Of a stretch of DNA of 31,229 nucleotides, positions 3,008 through 30,399 are shown in pieces. The stretch is from a virus. Lineage: Duplodnaviria > Caudoviricetes. Position numbers and translations under genes: made by a program. Where the stretch lies: the IMG/VR virus record IMGVR_UViG_3300017716_002651, positions 1 through 31,229 of that record. One strand, 5' to 3'. The notes beneath the pieces were generated by a model, which saw only the letters and a list, made by a program, of their open reading frames with translations, searched no databases and had not been told where the DNA came from. Every line of letters starts with the position of its first letter. Positions within the stretch are counted from its first letter, which is position 1.

Positions 3008-3508
3008 ATGAAAAACACAAATTTTGACGTGACTATTAGTTACATGAATGAGGATTTCACTATTAGTTTATCTTCAGACAATTGCACAAATGAAAGCCTA
3101 TTGAAACAATTACAAGAGTTGAAACAAGAAAGATTTGAACAAGAAAGTGGAGAAGATTTTGAAGGAGAATTTGAAGAGGATTTTGAAATTACAGATTGGC
3201 AAGATATTCCAGTTTGGTGTCAAGATTTAGAAATATTAGCAGATTTATTTGATAATTCAGATGATTATTATGAAATAGAAATTTATGAGGCTGCATATTC
3301 ATTAGATATTCCTTTTTCAGATGTTGCAGAGGCTTATTCAGGTGAATTTAACAGCGATGAGGATTTTGCGGAAAATTTAGCTAATGAGTTAGGCTTATTG
3401 CAATATTCCAAAAATTGGCCTTATACCTGCATAGACTGGGAACAAGCTGCAAATGAGTTAATGTATGATTATTGCACCGAAAACAATTACTATTTTAGAA
3501 ATTTATAA
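3008..3508 (+). CDS. ardA: ArdA-family antirestriction protein (acidic DNA mimic)
   Basis: Very D/E-rich; C-terminal YSGEFNSDEDFAE...WPYTCIDWEQAANELMYDY...YYFR matches the ArdA C-terminal pattern. Confidence 0.8.
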   Translation: MKNTNFDVTISYMNEDFTISLSSDNCTNESLLKQLQELKQERFEQESGEDFEGEFEEDFEITDWQDIPVWCQDLEILADLFDNSDDYYEIEIYEAAYSLDIPFSDVAEAYSGEFNSDEDFAENLANELGLLQYSKNWPYTCIDWEQAANELMYDYCTENNYYFRNL

Positions 3509-3591: not shown

Positions 3592-4218
3592 ATGAAAACT
3601 TTAGAAATACAAATTTTTTCTTTTGAAGAGTTAAAAGAAGAAAGCAAAAAAACTGCAATTGCAAACTACCAACCAATTACTGATTTTATTTGGGAAGATG
3701 CAAAAAATACAATTATTGCAGCTTGTGAATTTTTAGGTATCAAAACAGGTAGAAATAGTTTTTTTGATCCATACCTGGACAATATAGACGATAATATTAT
3801 GCAATTATCAGGATTAAGATTAAGAAAGTACTTCCTAAATAATTTTGAGTTATACAAAGGCAAATATTACAATGTAAAAGCAAATAAGCCAATTAAGCAT
3901 AAAAGAATCGTGAATTTAGGGCCTTATAAATCTGGTAACTATTTTGTAGGCTATTACAGCGCAATTCAAAAAGAACATAGTTGTATTTTAACAGGTATGT
4001 GTTACGATGATGACTTTTTAAAACCAATTTACGATTTAATTGAATTTAAAAATCCATTGTTAAAAAATGTAACTTTTGAGGATGTTATAAATGACTGTTT
4101 CCATAATCTTAAAAAGGTTTTGGAATCTGAAGAGGATTATTATAATTCAATTGAAGGAAGAACTGAAGAAATAGAAGCCAAGGAATTGGAATTTTTAGAA
4201 GATGAATCTATTTATTAA
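3592..4218 (+). CDS. Phage hypothetical early protein
   Basis: 208-aa ORF, FSFEEL...AI and LTGMCYDDDFL motifs. Confidence 0.75.
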   Translation: MKTLEIQIFSFEELKEESKKTAIANYQPITDFIWEDAKNTIIAACEFLGIKTGRNSFFDPYLDNIDDNIMQLSGLRLRKYFLNNFELYKGKYYNVKANKPIKHKRIVNLGPYKSGNYFVGYYSAIQKEHSCILTGMCYDDDFLKPIYDLIEFKNPLLKNVTFEDVINDCFHNLKKVLESEEDYYNSIEGRTEEIEAKELEFLEDESIY

Positions 4219-8915: not shown

Positions 8916-9145
8916 GCACTGAAACACTTGAAGAAGCTGAAAAAGTTGCAAAACTAAAATATGGAGCTACTATATATGGTTTAGAAAGGGTAAATGCTTT
9001 TAAAGCAGGTGCTCAATGTCAAGCAGAAAGAATGTATAGTCAAGAAGAAGTTGAAGTAATAGCTAAAGATGCTTATACTATGGGTAGAAACAATATTCTT
9101 ATAGGAGTATTTAACAAATGGTTTGAACAATTTAAAAAGAAATAA
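8912..9145 (+). CDS. Hypothetical protein
   Basis: ETLEEA...FKAGAQCQAERMYSQEEV...WFEQFKKK; ATGA-coupled. Confidence 0.65.
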   Translation: MSTETLEEAEKVAKLKYGATIYGLERVNAFKAGAQCQAERMYSQEEVEVIAKDAYTMGRNNILIGVFNKWFEQFKKK

Positions 9146-9146
9146 T

Positions 9147-9380
9147 ATGACCGCAAAAGAAAAAGCAAAAGAGTTAGTTGATAAATTTTATCAATCACAA
9201 GTAGCAGTTTTATCTAAAAATGGAACTGCTCAATGGGATTTAATTGAATATGAAATAGCCATAAAATCAGCATTGATAGCAGTTGATGAAATAATAAATC
9301 ATCATTCACAAGAACAAGGATTGTATAGGATTGATACATATTATTGGCAAGAAGTAAAAAAAGAAATAGAAAAATTATGA
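9147..9380 (+). CDS. Hypothetical protein
   Basis: MTAKEKAKELVDKF...ALIAVDEII...YWQEVKKEIEKL. Confidence 0.7.
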   Translation: MTAKEKAKELVDKFYQSQVAVLSKNGTAQWDLIEYEIAIKSALIAVDEIINHHSQEQGLYRIDTYYWQEVKKEIEKL

Positions 9381-9664
9381 GCACTGAAGATTATATTAAA
9401 GATTTAGTATCTGAAATATCAGATAATGGATGTCTTATTCCAACAGATCTACTTACCCATAACCTACAAAACCTTGTTGACTTCGCAAAGGCTGAACAAG
9501 TAATTGAAGAAACTAAACGCTGGTCAGATGCTTTAGCGAAAGAAATAGAGCCTAAAAATATAATTTTAGACGAGCCTAAAAAAAAATTTAGAGTAGTCCA
9601 AAAAGGTATTTTAACCACAAATGAAAATGCCTATGGTGATGGGGCAGCAGATTTACCAAACTAA
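9377..9664 (+). CDS. Hypothetical protein
   Basis: MSTEDY start is ATGA-coupled to the previous stop. Confidence 0.6.
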   Translation: MSTEDYIKDLVSEISDNGCLIPTDLLTHNLQNLVDFAKAEQVIEETKRWSDALAKEIEPKNIILDEPKKKFRVVQKGILTTNENAYGDGAADLPN

Positions 9665-9666
9665 TT

Positions 9667-9945
9667 ATGATTAAAAAAGTGTTATCTTTTTCTGACTGGC
9701 TTAATTTTGGATTCACTCTTCCTAAAAATGATTCCTTTGCAAAATGGAATAAGGAAGGTAAGGAATTAAGGAAGTCAAGAATTGCTCAGATCTGTGATAT
9801 ATGTGATATTTCCAGCACCACTGTTATAAACATTGAAAAGGGAACATTCTATAAAGATATTTACGCTGAGGCAATTGTTAGTTTAGCTGAAATGCCATTG
9901 GTATTTAAACATAAAGAAAATTATTTTTTGGTGGATTTGGATTAA
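9667..9945 (+). CDS. XRE/Cro-like HTH protein
   Basis: IAQICDICDISSTTVINIEKG. Confidence 0.55.
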   Translation: MIKKVLSFSDWLNFGFTLPKNDSFAKWNKEGKELRKSRIAQICDICDISSTTVINIEKGTFYKDIYAEAIVSLAEMPLVFKHKENYFLVDLD

Positions 9946-9952
9946 CGCCCTA

Positions 9953-10025
9953 TAACGTTCCCACGATAGGGGCTGTTTTCCTATGCGGAAACCTACTTTC
10001 GGCAAATAGACCTTATCGTGTGTTA
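9953..10025. repeat. attC-like site S0
   Basis: TAAC-GTTCC-CACGATAGGGGCTGTTT...AAATAGACCTTATCGTG-T-GTTA. Confidence 0.8.
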
Positions 10026-10064
10026 TCAGCATACCACTAAATACTAATTTAAAAATAAATTCAA

Positions 10065-10358
10065 ATGAAAAATATAATGGATAGTTCGGAAACTTTTGAT
10101 GCTTATGCTGAAATTGATTTATGTTATTACTTATTAAAAATGTTATACGAAAATGTTTCAAAAGAAATCGCACCCATAAATAAAATGGTTGATGATGCTA
10201 CTGGAAAAACTCAATCGGAATTAACAGAAAATAGAAAAACTGCAATTAATTTACTTACAAGAATAATTACAGCAAAGAAGATAATTGAAGCTGACTATTC
10301 AGGTGATGAAACTATGTTATCAAAACTCCTGCTAATCGACAAAGTTGTGGGTTGCTGA
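10065..10358 (+). CDS. Cassette 1 hypothetical protein
   Basis: Flanked by GTTATCAGCATACCAC (10022) and GTGGGTTGCTGATAAC (ends 10362). Confidence 0.7.
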   Translation: MKNIMDSSETFDAYAEIDLCYYLLKMLYENVSKEIAPINKMVDDATGKTQSELTENRKTAINLLTRIITAKKIIEADYSGDETMLSKLLLIDKVVGC

Positions 10359-10449
10359 TAACGTTTTCGGGGCTTTGCGTAGTAGCCCTTAGTAGAAACT
10401 TAAAATTAACCACGACACTTGATAGGGATATTACGCAAAACCCTTTTTA
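10359..10449. repeat. attC-like site S1 (GTTA degenerate to TTTA)
   Basis: TAAC...GGGCTTTGCGTAGTAGCCCT...AGGGATATTACGCAAAACCC...TTTATGTGC. Confidence 0.8.
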
Positions 10450-10486
10450 TGTGCCGTTTTTATTCACAATTTAATATCAAACAAAA

Positions 10487-10714
10487 ATGTCAGAACAAGA
10501 ATTTTACCGAAAAACAGATGAATGTATTGCTCGTTTCAAAAATGGAAAAGAACGATACAGAAATTCAGCAACATTTAACAGAGTAGTTCAAATGCTTGTT
10601 AGAGATGCTGACCCTTACGAAATTATTGACCATTTATGTCAGATGTCAGATGACCAAACAAAAGCATTTGAACAATACATTCATCGTGATACTCGTCCGA
10701 TGGTGATGTCTTAA
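10487..10714 (+). CDS. Cassette 2 hypothetical protein
   Basis: 75 aa; ends in AAAATTGCACCTAAC. Confidence 0.7.
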   Translation: MSEQEFYRKTDECIARFKNGKERYRNSATFNRVVQMLVRDADPYEIIDHLCQMSDDQTKAFEQYIHRDTRPMVMS

Positions 10715-10723
10715 AATTGCACC

Positions 10724-10846
10724 TAACGTATGGTGCTTTGCGAAGGCGGGGCATCGAAGAACAAATGTTGAATTAACCACAAAAGATAATTAGATGCAGA
10801 AAGTTGAAAATATAGATAAAACCCCGCTTTTGCAAAGCACGTGTTA
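10724..10846. repeat. attC-like site S2
   Basis: TAAC-GTATG-GTGCTTTGCGAAGGCGGGG...CCCCGCTTTTGCAAAGCAC-GT-GTTA. Confidence 0.85.
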
Positions 10847-11528
10847 TAAGCAGCCTTTTCGGGTGTTGAATTGCTATGCAGGTATTGGAGGTAATCGTAA
10901 ATACTGGGATGGAAATATTGAAGTAACAGCCATTGAGTTTGATGAAAATATTGCAAGTGTTTATAAAGACTTATATCCAAATGATAATGTTATTGTTTGT
11001 GATGCTCACGAATATCTTTTAAACAATTATGAAAACTTTGATTTTATATGGTGTTCACCGCCTTGCCCTACTCATTCAGTAACTAATCATTTTTTAAATG
11101 CACAAGGAATTAAACGCTATCCCGATATGAAATTGTATCAAGAAATAATATTACTACAAACATTTTTTAAAGGGAAATACATAATTGAAAATGTGAAAAG
11201 CTATTATGAACCATTGATTAAACCGCAGATTAGTGGCAGACATTATTTCTGGGCAAACTTTAAAATTCCTTTGCTAAAATTTGAAAAACAAATAGGCCGA
11301 ATGAATGGAAAGAAAGCAGATTTAGGCGGTAAAATACAAGCAGAATTAAGAACAAACAACCATAAGAAGCTCGGATTTGATTTGTCTAAATATACAGGTA
11401 TTGATAAAGAAAAAGTTTTGAATAATTGTGTTGCTCCCGAAATTGGACTTGCAATATTTCAAAGTGCTTTGGATATTTATGATGCTTCAAAAGTCGAACA
11501 GATTGGATTATTTACGGAGCTCTCATAA
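10794..11528 (+). CDS. Cassette 3: small C5-cytosine DNA methyltransferase
   Basis: Motif I VLNCYAGIGG, motif IV SPPC, motif VI IIENV, late NNCVAP; ATG lies in the loop of S2. Confidence 0.85.
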   Translation: MQKVENIDKTPLLQSTCYKQPFRVLNCYAGIGGNRKYWDGNIEVTAIEFDENIASVYKDLYPNDNVIVCDAHEYLLNNYENFDFIWCSPPCPTHSVTNHFLNAQGIKRYPDMKLYQEIILLQTFFKGKYIIENVKSYYEPLIKPQISGRHYFWANFKIPLLKFEKQIGRMNGKKADLGGKIQAELRTNNHKKLGFDLSKYTGIDKEKVLNNCVAPEIGLAIFQSALDIYDASKVEQIGLFTELS

Positions 11529-11537
11529 GGTTGCTTA

Positions 11538-11664
11538 TAACGGTTTGCAGCTACCAGAAGGGCGGGATTTAGAAAACGAAATTATCAAATTAAAAATAAA
11601 ATTATGTTAGAAAACGAAAACATCAATGAACCACAGAACCCCGCCTTTTTGGTAGGTTCTGTTA
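11538..11664. repeat. attC-like site S3
   Basis: TAAC-GGTTT-GCAGCTACCAGAAGGGCGGG...CCCGCCTTTTTGGTAGGTTC-T-GTTA. Confidence 0.85.
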
Positions 11665-12026
11665 GTGGTAGTGCTTTTCGGCAATTGAAATCATTTTGCT
11701 GCGGGCCTACTCGATTTAAAATTGAAGAAGCTATTAATGAAAGACCAATAGATGTTGTTTCAATTACTGGCGATGGGAATGTTTACATTGTTTTTTATTA
11801 CGAAAAGCAATTCTTCAATTTTAAAGAAACTAAACCGCCTATTGGGGTTGAAGTAATGGCTCATTCAAAAAATTGGATACACGAAGATTATAACAAAACA
11901 GGCATAAGAGTTGGATTTTTGAATGAAGATGAAAACGGAGAATTTATTTCAGCAAAATGGGATAATTCAGGAGATACTTATGAGAATTGCGAAGAAGATA
12001 AGCCTGATGTGTGGTGGTATTTTTAG
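11604..12026 (+). CDS. Cassette 4 hypothetical protein (DUF551-like C-terminus)
   Basis: ETKPPIGVEVMAH...KPDVWWYF; ATG lies in the loop of S3. Confidence 0.65.
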   Translation: MLENENINEPQNPAFLVGSVSGSAFRQLKSFCCGPTRFKIEEAINERPIDVVSITGDGNVYIVFYYEKQFFNFKETKPPIGVEVMAHSKNWIHEDYNKTGIRVGFLNEDENGEFISAKWDNSGDTYENCEEDKPDVWWYF

Positions 12027-12035
12027 CATTACCAC

Positions 12036-12161
12036 TAATGGAGGATTATTTGCGTTTGGTGGGGCGTTACACCACCAAAGATTATTAAAAGCACAAAATT
12101 TTAAAATATGCAGACAGATTCTAAAAAGCACAAAACCCCCACTGACGCAAATAATGTGTTA
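12036..12161. repeat. attC-like site S4 (TAAC degenerate to TAAT)
   Basis: TAAT-GGAGG-ATTATTTGCGTTTGGTGGGG...CCCCACTGACGCAAATAAT-GT-GTTA. Confidence 0.8.
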
Positions 12162-12392
12162 GCGGCTGGTTTTCGTTCGCTTCGTGAGGCAAAACGATTT
12201 TCAAAAATGTATGCTTTATTACAAATTTTAAATAGTCAAGTCGATGCTATGAACGATGCTGCTACAATAGTAACAGATTTTCAAAGTGAATGGGCATACA
12301 CAGAACTTTGCCGAATGAATTTACCTGATGGATTTGATAGACTTGGAAGTTTTGATGAGGCATTACGGTGGTTTTTTCAAACTTGCCGATAA
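12108..12392 (+). CDS. Cassette 5 hypothetical protein
   Basis: ATG lies in the loop of S4; flanks GTTAGCGGCTGGTTT / AAACTTGCCGATAAC. Confidence 0.6.
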   Translation: MQTDSKKHKTPTDANNVLAAGFRSLREAKRFSKMYALLQILNSQVDAMNDAATIVTDFQSEWAYTELCRMNLPDGFDRLGSFDEALRWFFQTCR

Positions 12393-12468
12393 CGGTATCG
12401 GGCTTGGCGAAGTGGCTGAACCCGAATTAAAATAGAATTACTAAACTTAAAAATTAATCAATAATAAA
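12390..12468. repeat. Half attC-like site S5 (right arm missing)
   Basis: TAAC-GGTAT-CGGGCTTGGCGAAGTGGC resembles the left arms of S1 and S7; no complementary arm or GTTA before the ATG at 12469. Confidence 0.7.
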
Positions 12469-12711
12469 ATGGGAGCATCAAGAGAAACTTGCGATTTATT
12501 TTGGATACTGCAATTAGCAAAAAAGTATCCCGACAACAAACAGTATTATTACAACCGTTTTTGGTATGTGATAAAACATCAACCTAAACTTATGTTTGAA
12601 GATACTTTTTTGCAGATATGGTGCAAAATTGTAGGACATAAGAAATATGCACCTGATAACGATAATCCAAAAGAAATTGCTTGTAAACGGTGTCATAAGT
12701 GGGTGTCTTAA
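12469..12711 (+). CDS. Cassette 6 hypothetical protein with Zn-binding motif
   Basis: WCKIVGH...CKRCH; ends in AAAATAGCACATAAC. Confidence 0.65.
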   Translation: MGASRETCDLFWILQLAKKYPDNKQYYYNRFWYVIKHQPKLMFEDTFLQIWCKIVGHKKYAPDNDNPKEIACKRCHKWVS

Positions 12712-12720
12712 AATAGCACA

Positions 12721-12782
12721 TAACGGTTTGCAGCTAACAGATAGTTTTTGCTTTTCGCAAAAATTTTGGTTAGGTGCGGTTA
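12721..12782. repeat. attC-like site S6 (short)
   Basis: TAAC-GGTTT-GCAGCTAAC...TTTTTGC-TTTTC-GCAAAAA...GTTAGGTGC-G-GTTA. Confidence 0.85.
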
Positions 12783-12828
12783 GCAGATAGGCACGGTTCA
12801 ATTAGTAAAAATTTAATTATAAATACAA

Positions 12829-13134
12829 ATGGAAAACTCAAAACAAAGTGAAGTATTCTTTCAACTATTTACACAAGTAAGAAAAGAAGTTGCAGACGAA
12901 AACGGCTACCACTTAGCAACTGCAATAATGAAAACTTTTGATAGGTGGAATATGTGGCAAACGGGTATGCCTGAATTTGATGGCAAATATCTTGTGCTAA
13001 TTGAACACGAACAGGAATGTAAAAATGTTTGGAAGTATCAAGAAGTTGTTGATTGCATCTTTAATAATTGGGTATTGAAAGACAAGCAAAAAGTAATAGG
13101 ATGGAAAAAATTATCAAACGAAGACGGTCAGTAG
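12829..13134 (+). CDS. Cassette 7 hypothetical protein (DUF551-like C-terminus)
   Basis: WQTGMPEFDGKYLVLI...VIGWKKL; flanks GTTAGCAGATAGGCAC / GTGCTTTCTGCTAAC. Confidence 0.65.
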   Translation: MENSKQSEVFFQLFTQVRKEVADENGYHLATAIMKTFDRWNMWQTGMPEFDGKYLVLIEHEQECKNVWKYQEVVDCIFNNWVLKDKQKVIGWKKLSNEDGQ

Positions 13135-13144
13135 TGCTTTCTGC

Positions 13145-13270
13145 TAACGGTTCTCGGCTTGGCGAGGTTGGGGGTTTAAAAACACAATCGCTCAAATTAT
13201 TACTAATGTTTAATAAAAGTACAAATGTTTAAATTAGCACAAATGCCCCAATCTTGCCAAACCGATGTTA
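13145..13270. repeat. attC-like site S7
   Basis: TAAC-GGTTC-TCGGCTTGGCGAGGTTGGGG...CCCCAATCTTGCCAAACCGA-T-GTTA. Confidence 0.85.
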
Positions 13271-13926
13271 GTGGCAGTACGGTTTATTTAATGGACTGTA
13301 TCGCCCTAATGAAAGAATACCCTGATAAGTATTTTGATTTGGCTGTGGTTGACCCACCATATGGAATTAATGCTGATGTAAAAAACAGCACTGATAAAAA
13401 GCAAAGTAAAAAAAGTGCTTCCAACTCTAAAAAGTATGGTGAGCAAAAATGGGATGCCGATGTGCCGACCAAAGAATATTTTATTGAGCTTTTTAGAGTA
13501 TCAAAAGAGCAAATTATTTGGGGTGTAAATTACTATCCATTTGACTTTTTAGCTGGTGGTAGAATCTACTGGGATAAATGCGTAACGATGCCAACTTATA
13601 GCGATGGCGAACTTGCTTATTGTTCTTTACTAAATAGCATAAAATCTGTTAAAATAGCTTGGCACGGTATGATACAACACGATATGAAAAACAAAGAAAC
13701 AAGAATACACCCAACTCAAAAGCCTATAAAGCTATATGATTGGATATTCCAAAACTTTGCAAAGGAAGGCGATAAAATACTTGATACACATTTAGGAAGC
13801 GGAAGTAGTCGGATTTCAGCACACAAAGCAAAATTAGACTTTACAGCTTCAGAGCTTGACCCTACATATTTTGCAAACCAAGAAAAAAGGTTTAACGATT
13901 ATAAAAGTCAGCTCACTTTATGGTAG
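13225..13926 (+). CDS. Cassette 8: N6-adenine/N4-cytosine DNA methyltransferase (beta class)
   Basis: DPPY, HPTQKP, ILDTHLGSGS in beta order; ATG lies in the loop of S7. Confidence 0.9.
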   Translation: MFKLAQMPQSCQTDVSGSTVYLMDCIALMKEYPDKYFDLAVVDPPYGINADVKNSTDKKQSKKSASNSKKYGEQKWDADVPTKEYFIELFRVSKEQIIWGVNYYPFDFLAGGRIYWDKCVTMPTYSDGELAYCSLLNSIKSVKIAWHGMIQHDMKNKETRIHPTQKPIKLYDWIFQNFAKEGDKILDTHLGSGSSRISAHKAKLDFTASELDPTYFANQEKRFNDYKSQLTLW

Positions 13927-13979
13927 TCGGTAGTATTGCCACTAACAAGTTTATACACGCAATTCAATAAATTGAACCT

Positions 13980-14201
13980 ATGGGAATCAACGAAATACAA
14001 AATCAAATAGTAAATTCAGTTCAAAATAATGAACTAAGTAACGATAATTTGGTGCAAATAATTGAACTTTGCGGAACATTTTTGAACTTGCAAACTATTC
14101 CAAAATATGCCAAAGAACACAATCTAAGCTATAACGGAGTAAAGAAATGTAGGGAAGTAAAAGAGATACTAGGAGTTAAATTTGTAATTGATAATAATTG
14201 A
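13980..14201 (+). CDS. Small putative HTH/excisionase-like DNA-binding protein at the array end
   Basis: LQTIPKYAKEHNLSYNGVKK followed by a beta-wing-like VKEILGVKFVID. Confidence 0.6.
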   Translation: MGINEIQNQIVNSVQNNELSNDNLVQIIELCGTFLNLQTIPKYAKEHNLSYNGVKKCREVKEILGVKFVIDNN

Positions 14202-14230
14202 TGGAAATATCATTTTTATATTTATATTTG
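14198..14230 (+). promoter_or_regulatory. Bacteroidota-type promoter
   Basis: TTG-N22-TATATTTG. Confidence 0.6.
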
Positions 14231-14232
14231 TA

Positions 14233-14341
14233 GTGCTAATGTTTAATACTAAATCCATAAAAATAATAAAATAAAAATATTGCAGCTCTAATGGGGTTCA
14301 ACTCCTTTTGGTGTTAAACATTAGCACCCATTAGACTGCAA
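14233..14341 (+). ncRNA. Structured (pseudoknot-like) 5' leader of HNH gene 1
   Basis: 14233-14253 pairs with 14307-14327 (21 bp, two G-U); 14280-14295 pairs with 14327-14341; order A-B-A'-B'. Confidence 0.7.
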
Positions 14342-14351
14342 CAATACTATT

Positions 14352-15008
14352 ATGGAAGAAATTTGGAAAGATATTCCTGGTTACGAGGGTTTGTATCAGG
14401 TAAGCTCTTTTGGTAATGTTAAGTCTTTTAAACGTGGAAAAGAAAAGATAATGAGATTATCATTAACTAATGGTTATCTAAGAGTTAGATTATGTAAAGA
14501 GAACCAAAAAAATATGTTTTCATCCCACGTTTTAGTAGCTATGGCATTTCATGGTCACATTCCTGATGGGTTTAACATAGTTGTTGACCATGACGATAAT
14601 AACCCTTTAAATAATCGTGCTGATAATATAAAATTGATTACTCAACGTGAAAATGCCAGTAAGGATAAAAAAAACAAAACGAGTCAATATGTTGGTGTTT
14701 CATGGAATGAAAGGGATGGGAATTGGGTAACTAGAATTAGATTTGGGAAAAGATATATTCATTTAGGATATTTTGAAACTGAAATTGATGCATCAAATGC
14801 TTACCAAAAGGCTTTTTCAGAATGGGAACAAGGACTAGACTTGAATGTGTTATATCCTAAAAAAATAAATTCTAGCCAATACAAATATGTTTATTGGAAT
14901 AAAAATAAGTGTAAATGGATTGCTGAGTACAAAGGTAAATATTTAGGTCATTTTGATACAGAAATTGAGGCACACAAAGCAGTACAAAAATATATATTAA
15001 CATTATAA
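14352..15008 (+). CDS. NUMOD4-HNH-AP2 homing endonuclease
   Basis: EIWKDIPGYEGLYQVSSFGNVKS; VDHDDNNPLNNRADN; two AP2-like SQYVGV/LGYFETEIDA units. Confidence 0.92.
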   Translation: MEEIWKDIPGYEGLYQVSSFGNVKSFKRGKEKIMRLSLTNGYLRVRLCKENQKNMFSSHVLVAMAFHGHIPDGFNIVVDHDDNNPLNNRADNIKLITQRENASKDKKNKTSQYVGVSWNERDGNWVTRIRFGKRYIHLGYFETEIDASNAYQKAFSEWEQGLDLNVLYPKKINSSQYKYVYWNKNKCKWIAEYKGKYLGHFDTEIEAHKAVQKYILTL

Positions 15009-23106: not shown

Positions 23107-23766
23107 ATGGAAACAAAGTATGTTGGGTATTTTCGTGTGAGTACCAAAGACCAAGGAGAATCAGGTTTGGGGTTACAATCTCAGCGACAATCTGTAAATA
23201 AAATGTTTGGTGAGTGCATTGCAGAATTTACCGAGGTAGAAAGTGGCAGGAAGAAAAACCGACCTGAGTTGTTAAAGGCCATTGAAATGTGCAAACAGAA
23301 AGGTGCTACATTGGTAGTGGCTAAATTAGATAGGCTTTCTCGTGATCCGTTATTTGTATTTACTCTTAGAGATAGTGGTGTGAAGTTTATTGCAGCAGAT
23401 AATGTTCATGCCAATGACCTTACAATAGGTTTGTTAGCAGTTATTGCTGGTAATGAAGCAACATTAATAAGAACTAGAACAAAGGCAGCACTTGCAGTTA
23501 AGAAACAACAATTAGCACTAGAAGGGAAGCGTTTAGGCTGCCCAAATTTAACATCAACAGGCAGAACTATTCAAGAGGTAATCGCTGAGAATCGTAAATG
23601 TAGGGTATATTCCAAGCCTGATTCTGAAAAGGTAAGGACATTAAAGATTTTAAAGGATGCTGGACAGCCAATGGATGAAGTTCAAAGGGTAGCCACACAG
23701 TTATTTGGAAAGACAATTTCAAAAGTTACAATTTATTCATATTTAAAATCATACCAAGCAGTATAA
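23107..23766 (+). CDS. Small serine recombinase (resolvase/invertase)
   Basis: YFRVST catalytic Ser, ESG, RPEL, KLDRLSR, C-terminal HTH ISKVTIYSYL; promoter TTG-N19-TATCTTTG at 23072-23101. Confidence 0.93.
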   Translation: METKYVGYFRVSTKDQGESGLGLQSQRQSVNKMFGECIAEFTEVESGRKKNRPELLKAIEMCKQKGATLVVAKLDRLSRDPLFVFTLRDSGVKFIAADNVHANDLTIGLLAVIAGNEATLIRTRTKAALAVKKQQLALEGKRLGCPNLTSTGRTIQEVIAENRKCRVYSKPDSEKVRTLKILKDAGQPMDEVQRVATQLFGKTISKVTIYSYLKSYQAV

Positions 23767-27333: not shown

Positions 27334-29448
27334 ATGGGAATAAATGTTTTATCATGCTTTGATGGTTGCAGTGGCGGAAATCAAGCATTAGAAAGAATAG
27401 GAATTAAAGTTGACAATTACTTTGCAAGTGAGATTGATAAGTATGCCATCCAAGTTACTATGGCTAATTATCCTAATACTATTCAATTGGGTAGTGTTGT
27501 TGATGTGGATTGTAGTAAACTACCTAAGATTGATTTATTAATTGGAGGTTCACCTTGCCAAAGTTTTAGCTTTGCAGGTAAGCGAAAAGGAATGTCAACA
27601 AAATGCGAAACCGAGATATTAACCCTAGAGCATTACTTGGAACTAAAATCAGATGGTTTTGAATTTGAGGGGCAGTCTTATTTATTTTGGGAGTACATGA
27701 GAATACTAAATGAAGTTAAGCCTAAGTATTTTCTGCTTGAAAATGTAGAAATGGGCGAAAAGTGGGAAAAGGTATTAAGCAAAGCTATTGGAGTAAATGG
27801 TATTCATATTAATTCTGCTTTGGTTTCGGCTCAAAATAGGAAGCGTATCTATTGGTTTAATTTTGGTATTCCTACAATAGATTTGTTTGGAGAAACTACC
27901 TATCACATACCTCAACCAAAAGATAAGGGTATTTTATTGAAAGATATTTTAGATAGTGAAGTTGATGAAAAGTATTTTTTGAGCGAGAAAATGTTAAAAT
28001 CATTAATGGCAGACAAAGACCTTGGTAATGGAGTTTGGAAAGGCATGGAAACAAGGGAACTTTTTGAAAAAGGACATACTATTACAGCTAGAATGGGCAA
28101 ATCTGATAATTACATTAAGATTGATAAAAAAGGAAATGTAAAGGATAACCAAGAAAAAGCATCTTGTTTCACAGCAGGAGGACATTCTGGTGGAAATCAT
28201 TCTGACATGGATTTAATTGTACACAATACAATGCCAAGAAGTAGTACAACAGGGAAAGGAGGAACAGGTCATTTAAGCAGAAACGATGGTAAAACTTATT
28301 GCTTAGATACTGGTAATACAAATGCTGTTGAGATAGTGGCAATGAGAGGCAGAGGTGAAAAAGGTAATATTGAGCAACAACTTAAAACCAATGGTACTGA
28401 TAAAAGTAATTCACTAACAACTGCTCAGAAAGATAACCTTGTAAGACAATTAAACCCATCAACAGAAAGTAATGGTAAGCAACCATACCAACAAAACAGA
28501 ATTTACGATATAGAAGGTATAAGTCCTGCTTTAATGGCTCAATTACCAAAAGGCAGTACAATGATTAATACTTCACGAATTAGAAGATTAACTCCAACCG
28601 AATGCGAAAAATTGCAGACAATGAATCCAGGATATACTAAAAAAGGTTTGGAAAATCATTTCCAATTATTTAACTTTACAGGAAATAAATTTACCTTATG
28701 TCAAAGATTTGTAAAGAAGAAAATTGTAACCAACCAATTTCAAGTAGAGAAACTGAATTATGCCACAAACACCATTATAGACTTATTAGAAACGGAACAA
28801 CTGAATTATCAAGATCACTTGTTGACCACTCTAAAAAATGTATCGTGGATGGTTGTGAACGAAAGCAACAATCTTCAACAGAAACGTGTCTTATGCACTA
28901 TAAAAGATGGAAAAGATATGGGGCATTTATTATTCCCGAAAGAATTAATAAATCAGAATTTAAATGTAAGTTTTGTGATACGAAAGTTGGAAGGTCAGGA
29001 AGCCTTGGAATGTGTAACAAACATTTCCAAATGTTCAGATTACATGGAGACCCATTACATACCGACCAAAGAAGGCTTGCTCCAAACGCATACGGATATT
29101 ATAGAGATACCGATGGAGTCGAATTTCACAGAAAAATTGCTGAACAAAAAATTGGTAGAAAACTTATTAAGGGAGTCGAAGTCGTACATCATATTGACCT
29201 TAATAAAATTAATAATAACCCAAGCAATTTACAAGTCCTTACAAAATCAGAACACGCCCGTACACATCAACAGCTTAATAAAATTGCAGGACAACTCATT
29301 AGAGCTGGAGTTATTGTATATAGAAACGGAGAATATTGTATCAATTTCTGATAGTATGCGTTACAAAATGATTGGAAATGGTTGGACAATTTCTGTGATA
29401 GCCCACATATTTAGTTACCTCAACCTATCTTCAGAAACAACTTCCTAA
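27334..29448 (+). CDS. C5-cytosine DNA methyltransferase with ~230-codon insertion between motifs IX and X
   Basis: VLSCFDG, GGSPCQ, LLENV, QNRKRIYW, repeated variable-region units, RRLTPTECEKLQT, then insertion, then SDSMRYKMIGNGW. Confidence 0.92.
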   Translation: MGINVLSCFDGCSGGNQALERIGIKVDNYFASEIDKYAIQVTMANYPNTIQLGSVVDVDCSKLPKIDLLIGGSPCQSFSFAGKRKGMSTKCETEILTLEHYLELKSDGFEFEGQSYLFWEYMRILNEVKPKYFLLENVEMGEKWEKVLSKAIGVNGIHINSALVSAQNRKRIYWFNFGIPTIDLFGETTYHIPQPKDKGILLKDILDSEVDEKYFLSEKMLKSLMADKDLGNGVWKGMETRELFEKGHTITARMGKSDNYIKIDKKGNVKDNQEKASCFTAGGHSGGNHSDMDLIVHNTMPRSSTTGKGGTGHLSRNDGKTYCLDTGNTNAVEIVAMRGRGEKGNIEQQLKTNGTDKSNSLTTAQKDNLVRQLNPSTESNGKQPYQQNRIYDIEGISPALMAQLPKGSTMINTSRIRRLTPTECEKLQTMNPGYTKKGLENHFQLFNFTGNKFTLCQRFVKKKIVTNQFQVEKLNYATNTIIDLLETEQLNYQDHLLTTLKNVSWMVVNESNNLQQKRVLCTIKDGKDMGHLLFPKELINQNLNVSFVIRKLEGQEALECVTNISKCSDYMETHYIPTKEGLLQTHTDIIEIPMESNFTEKLLNKKLVENLLRESKSYIILTLIKLIITQAIYKSLQNQNTPVHINSLIKLQDNSLELELLYIETENIVSISDSMRYKMIGNGWTISVIAHIFSYLNLSSETTS
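28647..28678 (+). promoter_or_regulatory. Internal promoter for the nested HNH gene
   Basis: TTTG-N20-TAACTTTA (one mismatch to TAnnTTTG), overlapping hairpin TTGGAAA-ATCA-TTTCCAA, 19 nt before ATG 28698. Confidence 0.55.
28698..29351 (+). CDS. HNH endonuclease nested out of frame in the MTase
   Basis: Three Cys/His repeats (C...C...C-x2-H-x2-R...G) and HRKIAE...VVHHIDLNKINNNPSNL...EHARTH. Confidence 0.9.
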   Translation: MSKICKEENCNQPISSRETELCHKHHYRLIRNGTTELSRSLVDHSKKCIVDGCERKQQSSTETCLMHYKRWKRYGAFIIPERINKSEFKCKFCDTKVGRSGSLGMCNKHFQMFRLHGDPLHTDQRRLAPNAYGYYRDTDGVEFHRKIAEQKIGRKLIKGVEVVHHIDLNKINNNPSNLQVLTKSEHARTHQQLNKIAGQLIRAGVIVYRNGEYCINF

Positions 29449-29974: not shown

Positions 29975-30399
29975 ACAATTGTCAAAGTTATTTTTTCAGT
30001 CTTTTCAACCTTCTTCAATTCTGCCATAAATTTAGTCATAGCTGCTACACTTGCACCCACAAAATTAACTGCCTTGGTTGTTCCTAGCAAAAGGCATCCA
30101 TGAGAATCTGCTGCTTTATTACCAGCGTGAATCCTAATTCCCTCAAATCCTTTTACATTTAATACCTCAGGAAGATATTTCTGAAAGCGATTAGAGAACG
30201 ATAGAATGACTTTATACGTTCCTTTTGGTATAGCAGTTAGTCCATAAACTTTCGCTTCACCTACATCATCTAAATCACCATCTTTGTTAATATCCCTATC
30301 AAAGTCCTCTAGGGTATAACAGAAAAATTTGCCATTAATTGACAACTCACCAATTGTTGAATCCTTCGTAAAGGTTGTTCTTTTAACTAATATTTCCAT
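29971..30399 (-). CDS. DUF5675-type putative endolysin
   Basis: STIGEL...YTLED...TAIPKGTY...GIRIHAGN...DSHGCLLLG; start moved to MEILVKR. Confidence 0.8.
   Translation of the reverse strand: MEILVKRTTFTKDSTIGELSINGKFFCYTLEDFDRDINKDGDLDDVGEAKVYGLTAIPKGTYKVILSFSNRFQKYLPEVLNVKGFEGIRIHAGNKAADSHGCLLLGTTKAVNFVGASVAAMTKFMAELKKVEKTEKITLTIV

Follow-up and report, generated by a model that had tools for sequence, protein, structure and literature searches.

Current models of integrons place the recombination site attC behind the gene with which it moves, and regard an I2 insertion in the integrase together with extrahelical bases in the folded site as necessary for strand choice. Whether a cassette array might also operate with the order of site and gene reversed is the question raised by a row of small genes and palindromes in a virus of the class Caudoviricetes. 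The window analysed here is the entire linear virus record (IMG/VR IMGVR_UViG_3300017716_002651) of 31,229 nucleotides (nt), which is 69% complete by CheckV and to which all unqualified positions refer. Its array spans positions 9953 to 13946 and ends in a bare attI-like site; it comprises eight genes on the + strand, of which two encode DNA methylases, interspersed with seven full hairpins and one half hairpin. The hairpins are bounded by TAAC (once TAAT) on the left and by GTTA (once TTTA) on the right. An initial inspection of the letters, referred to as the sequence-only reading, had located inverted cassettes at 10724 to 13280; the hairpins and open reading frames (ORFs) named there are present, but the array is larger. 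As detailed below, the mobile unit is almost certainly the upstream hairpin and its gene, with the crossover motif, and the hairpin loops very probably supply start codons to genes. The features of the array and the gene behind it are as follows.

9953–10025, + strand: hairpin H0, 73 nt, at the start of the array
10065–10358, + strand: cassette gene 0, 97 amino acids (aa), no known family; own ATG behind H0; flanks pair at 10/12 positions
10359–10449, + strand: hairpin H1, 91 nt, degenerate right core TTTA
10487–10714, + strand: cassette gene 1, 75 aa, no known family; own ATG; flanks pair at 8/12 positions
10724–10846, + strand: hairpin H2, 123 nt; ATG 10794 in the loop; frame set by four consecutive C in the right arm
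10794–11528, + strand: C5 cytosine DNA methyltransferase, 244 aa (PF00145, E 4e-6; phrog_363)
11538–11664, + strand: hairpin H3, 127 nt; ATG 11604 in the loop
11604–12026, + strand: cassette gene 3, 140 aa, no known family; 20 codons behind GTTA without ATG
12036–12161, + strand: hairpin H4, 126 nt; left core TAAT; ATG 12108 in the loop
12108–12392, + strand: cassette gene 4, 94 aa, no known family; the TAA of the following core serves as its stop; ATG 12207 as alternative start
12390–12468, + strand: half hairpin H5, left arm and loop only, fused by deletion to the leader of gene 12469
12469–12711, + strand: cassette gene 5, 80 aa; weak sub-threshold match to DUF1660 / phrog_2670
12721–12782, + strand: hairpin H6, 62 nt, without start codon
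12829–13134, + strand: cassette gene 6, 101 aa, no known family; own ATG; found unchanged with H6 in other flanks
13145–13270, + strand: hairpin H7, 126 nt; loop with ATG 13225, ATG 13243 and an 8-codon frame from 13206
13225–13926, + strand: N6/N4 DNA methyltransferase, 233 aa (PF01555, E 8e-11)
13943–13977, + strand: terminal attI-like site, a bare TAAC, 15 nt and then a short palindrome; likely insertion point
13980–14201, + strand: 73-aa gene (phrog_18952) in the place of the recombinase of other phages; weak helix-turn-helix lead

The hairpins are not a product of chance, since six were called between 9900 and 14000 compared to a mean of 0.18 (maximum 2) over 200 composition-matched resamplings, with just one more called in the remaining 27 kb; these counts are approximate, as the caller misses some sites (such as H6, score 11) and makes false calls (as in L239). 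As in attC sites, all seven full hairpins combine R''/R' cores, here of the YAAC/GTTR type (with one TTTA and one TAAT), with a foldable stem. When the 12 nt from each GTTA are compared to the 12 nt ending in the next TAAC, 8–11 positions pair. The array starts with a full hairpin without upstream partner flank (best 8/12, searched between 7500 and 9900) and ends with the bare TAAC at 13943. In the case of H5, relatives with a full hairpin (L068, L113, L175, L310) and relatives of gene 12469 with their own GTTA flank (L418, L419) indicate that the right arm was lost in a deletion, by which the loop and the gene's leader were joined over a short A-rich match; this gene can therefore leave only together with cassette 4. 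Searches with Pfam and PHROGs assigned no family to four of the eight cassette genes and gave a sub-threshold match for 12469, an Rfam scan of 9000–15000 found nothing near a gathering score, and no relatives of gene 11604 were found among viral contigs. Among cultured records, the array region is matched most closely by Flavobacterium phages (36 of 61 records), suggesting that the host belongs to the Bacteroidota.

To which of its two neighbouring hairpins a gene belongs can be read from sequences in which only one of them is shared. With a 19-nt pattern taken from H2 (left arm), 48 viral loci were retrieved and, after removal of one duplicate and one copy lacking upstream sequence, 47 copies were available, 46 of them with 30 nt upstream. 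In this family, the upstream flanks differ in 45 of 46 copies and conservation starts at the T of TAAC. Among the 43 copies with a right arm, only 1 of 903 pairs is 70% alike upstream compared to 614 of 903 downstream, and the same gene begins behind the hairpin in 35/43. A similar picture emerges from cultured Flavobacterium phages, for which we compared 17 genomes of the genera Lillamyvirus, Muminvirus and Hattifnattvirus, leaving out tant8-1, where there is no array. Three clean indels of 439 bp (sniff9-1/9-2), 342 bp (snork6-1/6-2) and 1181 bp (hemulen6-1/stinky9-1) span TAAC to TAAC, with the upstream hairpin and one or more genes inside and the downstream hairpin kept. Among 82 distinct junctions, 73 fall on YAAC (one of them classed wrongly, on a CAAC inside an arm), three on a TAAC start fitting both classes, six inside hairpins and none on GTTR alone, whereas random positions would place 5–7% on YAAC and 1.5–6% on GTTR. 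Since the 17 genomes are close kin, these junctions are not independent events; when collapsed by shared flank (n=33), 28 fall on YAAC, two fit both classes, three lie inside hairpins and again none is on GTTR alone. With 76/82 junctions thus located at the AAC that follows a stop codon, and not one at GTT by itself, the usual unit is the upstream hairpin with its gene.

The same unit is found on contigs beyond the window. A contig from another sequencing run (run X2 record 14) matches 12719–13148, corresponding to H6 and the downstream gene 12829, with 0 differences and departs from the window on both sides, and the hairpin and gene of the N6/N4 methyltransferase cassette are alike in L076, where the neighbours are different. 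Contigs end at 12038 in three other runs and at 10362 in two, with run X1, a possible source of the window, left out as independent support for the unit. Together, the hairpin-anchored flanks, the indels of the cultured phages and the contig from another sample bear out the proposal of the sequence-only reading that upstream hairpin and gene move as one, with a crossover at the AAC after the stop codon; the test of co-segregation it had called for, run in three ways, found the gene accompanied by its upstream hairpin. The crossover thus appears to take place within the AAC triplet of the better-folding strand, possibly precisely between AA and C, as hinted by the contigs ending at 12038. An exact search for H4, aimed at pinning the crossover base by way of its TAAT, gave 0 hits.

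Several observations weigh against this assignment. When the C5 methylase was used as anchor (29 loci scripted, of which 14 yielded an upstream hairpin call, one being false, in addition to the window), the excess was only moderate, with upstream arms alike in 20/105 pairs and downstream arms in 3/105, and a gene-anchored test at the level of clusters gave two cases for upstream, one for downstream and one tie. Contigs of other sequencing runs, the only material searched for this purpose, contain neither a circle joint nor a cassette-border joint. An all-against-all comparison of cassettes (alike upstream in 21/32 pairs, downstream in 1/32) was set aside as circular, because many loci had been chosen by a hairpin pattern. 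As a separate observation, L032 carries two H2-type hairpins with the same methylase start at its positions 57 and 2086, 2 kb apart in one array.

If the hairpins are recombined as folded single strands, their polarity should be manifested in the sequence. In attC, the recombined bottom strand folds better, contains more G:T pairs and is cut in AAC (Nivina 2016, PMC5027507), and a G follows the AAC of this strand in most sites (Bouvier 2009, PMC2727003). Our set comprised 143 viral hairpins with a gene behind, with 72 loci obtained from protein searches and 101 hairpins from recombinase loci. In these, the coding strand is the better-folding one in 117 cases and the template strand in 23, the coding strand contains 1.60 G:T compared to 0.17 C:A pairs, and the arrangement TAAC-G ... 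T-GTTA is found on the coding strand in 138/143. For comparison, we inspected 13 chromosomal regions in 12 Flavobacteriaceae genomes. Chromosomal sites with either signature show the A ... C arrangement on the recombinase strand in 22/22 cases, and in all 17 sites that follow a sense gene, it is the template strand that folds better. When scored with a matrix built on the chromosomal template strands, the coding strand is preferred in 142/143 viral hairpins and in 7/7 of the window, also if core bases are left out. Signature, fold and matrix therefore point to one family of sites, in textbook orientation in chromosomes and mirrored in phages. Since the related chromosomal sites, next to a recombinase that is itself related, have the textbook orientation, it is the phage genes that are inverted relative to their sites, in accordance with the inversion postulated by the sequence-only reading. 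Thus, where a gene of an integron is followed by its own attC, with the coding strand as top strand, the site here precedes its gene. In the predicted folds of 141 viral sites, the first loop is a 3–4 nt bulge on the 5' (AAC) arm in 98, and later single-base bulges are found on the 3' arm in 5 and on the 5' arm in 25; these folds thus do not show the extrahelical bases which in integrons stand opposite the cleaved AAC. A promoter comparable to Pc, which in integrons lies beside attI and drives the array, would be excluded by geometry if it were to read from the terminal site into the genes. A Bacteroidota promoter consensus is not enriched on the coding strand of the hairpins (3/143), and its occurrence on the template strand (23 compared to 13.9 ± 3.5, maximum 27, in matched shuffles) was not accepted as a signal.

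We next turn to the origin of the start codons. The ORFs starting at 10794, 11604, 12108 and 13225 exist with the peptides that had been quoted for them, their ATGs lie inside the hairpins 10724–10846, 11538–11664, 12036–12161 and 13145–13270, and all four read without stop through the right arm and GTTA. This holds for half of the genes, as no start reading through a right arm is found for 10065, 10487 and 12829, which begin behind short hairpins of 62–91 nt, or for 12469, which begins behind the half hairpin. In the wider set, 61 of 109 long hairpins contain an in-frame ATG in the loop, compared to 35.0 ± 3.6 (maximum 47) in 1000 shuffled pairings, and among genes without own ATG within 25 codons the proportion rises to 30/32 (15.4 ± 2.5 and maximum 24 in shuffles), while an own ATG is present in each of the 34 genes preceded by a short hairpin. 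Long hairpins ahead of the C5 methylase contain an in-frame ATG in 12/12 cases. The H2 family offers a case of frame compensation, with a C run in the right arm of 4 residues in the window and L040 and of 5 in the other 42 copies, which fits the frame of the gene every time (with three ORFs cut by locus ends and one short), and the distance from ATG to GTTA is 69 nt in 28/28 loop haplotypes. In light of these statistics, the loop starts look selected. As separate observations, the loops at 13206–13232 and 10765–10776 contain extra ATGs in other frames, giving very short frames; since relatives read the same loop sequence in another frame, loops may act as frame adaptors.

As the best surviving alternative, though an improbable one, the unit might be as described while translation begins behind GTTA at a GTG, TTG or later ATG, which would leave the frame of the hairpin incidental. 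As previously noted from the letters, there is no in-frame ATG between GTTA and motif I of the C5 methylase, yet GTG 10863 and TTG 10866 are present, and later in-frame starts exist at TTG 11685 for 11604, at ATG 12207 for 12108 and at ATGs 13243, 13291 and 13309 for 13225. The adenine at -3, found in a fraction of 0.46 of the loop starts compared to 0.79 behind short hairpins, is weak, 46 of the 109 long hairpins do not show an in-frame ATG in the loop, and only four of the eight genes of the window would make use of one, all of which speaks against a loop start. The hairpin-coded peptide appears hardly constrained, because among 13 codon variants those that change the residue (8) outnumber the silent ones (5), which is a further point on this side. 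Against starts behind GTTA stand the frame match in 30/32 genes, the one-base compensation in the H2 family, the constant distance in loop haplotypes, and the properties of the downstream codons, which for 10794, 11604 and 13225 are unconserved, A-poor and more paired. GTG 10863, at the entry to motif I, is present in 2 of 14 C5 methylase homologues, one being the window itself. In a structural model of this methylase, the hairpin-coded residues 1–17 are predicted to be unstructured, with a predicted local distance difference test (pLDDT) score <50 that is partly due to a want of aligned rows, and residues 22–27 form the first strand, into which a start at GTG 10863 would cut. Bacteroidetes make no use of Shine-Dalgarno sequences and initiation depends on low structure and upstream adenines (Baez 2019); an A at -12 is found in a fraction of 0.79 of loop starts and 0.76 of ordinary ones. 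Initiation in the loop, which we infer from the frame statistics, thus appears likely for 10794, 11604 and 13225, whereas for 12108 the loop ATG and ATG 12207 are both candidate starts, equally accessible and A-rich.

A somewhat less probable alternative, which we regard as unlikely, treats hairpin and gene body as independent modules, with both cores recombined about equally and a link that results only from frame-keeping. It draws on swaps at the GTT side, which also argue against a fixed unit: hairpins change genes at GTT in two cases among the cultured phages, with shared blocks of 54 and 39 nt; other sequencing runs contain H3, H4 and H6 as pieces consisting of the hairpin alone; the C5 methylase body of the window sits behind several hairpin families; and behind hairpins of the H2 family there are, besides the downstream flank of the window, six different ones, which appear methylase-like by their motifs. 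In addition, the junction count, with its requirement for 80-nt blocks, under-counts swaps at the GTT side. Frame-keeping does not account for short hairpins without start codon, which equally travel with the downstream gene, as in the case of H6 and 12829, and the recent events are all located at or just inside YAAC, in sites that are strand-asymmetric. We thus retain upstream hairpin and gene as the usual unit and read the GTT-side swaps as rarer events, because mostly diverged copies are involved. The link is not permanent, with genes also exchanged at GTT over longer times.

The identity of the enzyme is suggested by the terminal site. Relatives of gene 13980 were analysed at 35 of 37 loci, two short matches having been dropped, and in 34 of these a YAAY, 14–16 nt and a short palindrome (in a loose pattern) stand ahead of the gene, behind 30 different upstream flanks. 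In L077, the place of the terminal gene is taken by a tyrosine recombinase of 266 aa. Among its relatives (76 of 80 loci analysed, with four partial matches dropped), a YAAC site is found 25–75 nt upstream of the recombinase gene in 71/76 loci compared to 1/76 in a control stretch, and 66 different flanks precede it in the 71 loci. Hairpins around these genes are concentrated on one side, with 169 in 178 kb upstream compared to 28 in 220 kb downstream. Equally, the 17 cultured phages contain one fixed terminal site behind 8 different cassette ends. By comparison with these loci, the terminal site would behave like attI, the primary insertion site of integrons, although located downstream of the genes.

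The tyrosine recombinase found beside the site in relatives carries a Phage_int_SAM_4 domain. Against the integron-integrase model TIGR02249 the 266-aa protein scores 147 bits, in two stretches and below the cut-off of 265, and its chromosomal relative 214 bits. It lacks the I2 insertion, which has been tied to extrahelical bases (Escudero 2016, PMC4792948), because 35 residues stand where IntI4 has 83. The enzyme is thus likely an Xer-like tyrosine recombinase without the insertion of integron integrases. Two negative results count against its involvement: neither an integron integrase nor a recombinase of this type was found on the 69% complete contig, and no close relative was found in the cultured phage records at E 1e-40. 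Supply would be in trans, from outside the contig; plasmid matches to the recombinase are <60% identical, and when 61 genomes from the family to which Croceivirga radicis belongs were sampled, 14 contained a relative of 375 aa. A serine resolvase at 23107 was rejected as candidate, being 9 kb away, with the site elsewhere tied to a tyrosine recombinase. As observations beside these, the 73-aa family is always found behind the terminal site, with the short palindrome before its start, and may be a regulator or direction factor; its member at 13980 gave only sub-threshold helix-turn-helix leads. Flavobacteriaceae chromosomes (L324 7680–14654, L405–L417) carry the 375-aa recombinase with an attI-like site behind its stop and sites of 120–190 nt in textbook polarity. 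In L011, the stretch before the recombinase (1300–1355) is repeated at 4097–4155, behind a two-cassette array 2.8 kb away, which suggests a rearrangement separating array and enzyme.

That no site-specific enzyme is involved, with hairpins acting as expression elements in RNA and shuffling brought about by slippage or phage annealing proteins at repeated TAACG, appears very improbable. The lack of a close recombinase relative in lytic cultured phages whose arrays change, and some junctions located 6–10 nt inside similar left arms, would suit it. Conversely, the equally repeated TGTTA shows no such junction, overlaps go down to 4 nt, the terminal site is followed at a fixed distance by the recombinase gene in 71/76 loci, and the better fold of the non-coding strand in all 17 chromosomal copies fits DNA and not mRNA. 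Finally, the textbook arrangement, in which a gene moves with the hairpin behind it and crosses over at G|TTA, can scarcely be upheld, for although alternating genes and palindromes with GTT/AAC cores and a few swaps at GTT resemble it and the paired flanks suit either model, it is refuted by indels that remove the upstream and keep the downstream hairpin, and disfavoured by 0/82 junctions at GTTR alone, by an array with a full hairpin at its start and a bare TAAC at its end, and by downstream arms alike in only 3/105 gene-anchored pairs.

The preferred reading, an integron-like array with upstream hairpin and gene as unit, long hairpins with start codons and an Xer-like enzyme from outside, is as a whole quite probable. 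It implies a mechanism where the coding strand would fold as single-stranded DNA to be cleaved between AA and C. The cassette would exit as a circle, in which its flanks of 10–12 bp lengthen the stem, and re-enter at the terminal site, so that new cassettes would be added at the downstream end of the row, with transcription reaching them from phage genes upstream. On the transcript, the A-rich loop would serve as landing place for the ribosome and add an unstructured tail of about 15–25 residues. Less often, a gene body would be replaced behind its hairpin at the GTT side, with only in-frame combinations surviving. A likely benefit would be a quickly changed set of anti-restriction methylases.

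With integrons, the system shares the AAC/GTT cores, a better-folding strand with more G:T pairs and a G behind its AAC, the crossover at AAC, and a terminal site that is not a hairpin and, in relatives, has a tyrosine recombinase with Phage_int_SAM_4 domain beside it. Unlike in integrons, the phage genes reside on the folding strand so that the site precedes the gene, the terminal site follows the row of genes, the sites contain a 3–4 nt bulge in the AAC arm instead of extrahelical bases on the opposite arm, the recombinase does not contain the IntI insertion, and the site often holds a start codon. The array thus works like an integron but is not a member of this class, in the absence of I2 insertion and extrahelical bases and with mirrored polarity. 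Closest in the literature are 17 phage clusters of two or more attC sites without a neighbouring integrase (CALINs; Qi et al. 2023, PMC9892861), which equally are arrays in lytic phages with orphan methylases. Among their sites, P12002L_attC1 has the layout found in the window, on the coding strand, and it is the sole one of six that IntI1 failed to recombine (PMC9892861). In the part of that paper covered, the sites are read as ordinary attC and divergent directions as mosaicism, and neither an inverted unit nor a start in the loop is accounted for. The respective phage, Polaribacter phage P12002L (L422), carries about ten sites of the window's hairpin family on the coding strand at 30008–40949, compared to two tested in PMC9892861.

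In the reverse integrons of Treponema (Wu et al. 2013, PMC3607928), intI points at attI from upstream, and it is the integrase and not the genes that is inverted. This layout is resembled by the Flavobacteriaceae chromosomal arrays, whereas in the system described here the recombinase of relatives is downstream of the genes, which are themselves inverted against the sites. ORF-11 and ORF-17 of attI1 and short ORFs in attC (PMC8876359) similarly provide translation signals from a recombination site, although as short leader frames for coupling, whereas the phage site would encode the start and N-terminus of the cassette protein and travel along with it. CTX phage integration by XerCD (PMC4792948) shares the folded single strand without extrahelical bases and an enzyme without I2 that is borrowed from the host, but it employs a single site for the whole phage genome instead of a cassette array with a dedicated recombinase. 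Among cultured Flavobacterium phages, methylase content has been linked to plating efficiency (Nilsson 2020, PMC7077304), in a text that in the part covered uses the words integron, cassette and integrase 0 times, and the IntegronFinder 2.0 paper, in its covered part, lists one complete integron in Bacteroidetes proper. Our literature search, with subscription journals and bioRxiv supplements outside its coverage, found no account of inverted cassettes. The system is real and ordinary within its own widespread family, yet we found no published description.

In the phage array, units turn over at a single triplet despite the reversed order and the missing I2 insertion and extrahelical bases, which provides an intermediate between the chemistries of Xer and IntI that is open to testing. 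On balance, we lean towards a broader view in which Bacteroidota have in common with their phages an as yet unrecognised integron-like system without I2, whose mirrored phage element of 125 nt would at once be recombination site, landing place for ribosomes and N-terminal code, from which lytic phages would borrow the enzyme to retune their methylases, and in which gene-body swaps behind hairpins would make a route of cassette birth visible. This would provide access to the question of cassette origin and explain the differences in methylases among cultured Flavobacterium phages, which are tied to plating efficiency in the covered part of PMC7077304, as well as the odd N-terminal tails of many Bacteroidota phage proteins. 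As cultured phage–host pairs exist, every step is amenable to experiment.

Genes elsewhere in the window include those of a DnaB helicase and a serine resolvase, together with HNH genes and methylases. A weak match to the antirestriction protein ArdA at 3008–3508 (E 9e-5, below cut-off) provides a second anti-restriction lead on the contig, and the long C5 methylase ORF at 27334–29448 contains, in a different frame, the nested frame of an HNH endonuclease (28698–29351), possibly a mobile insertion.

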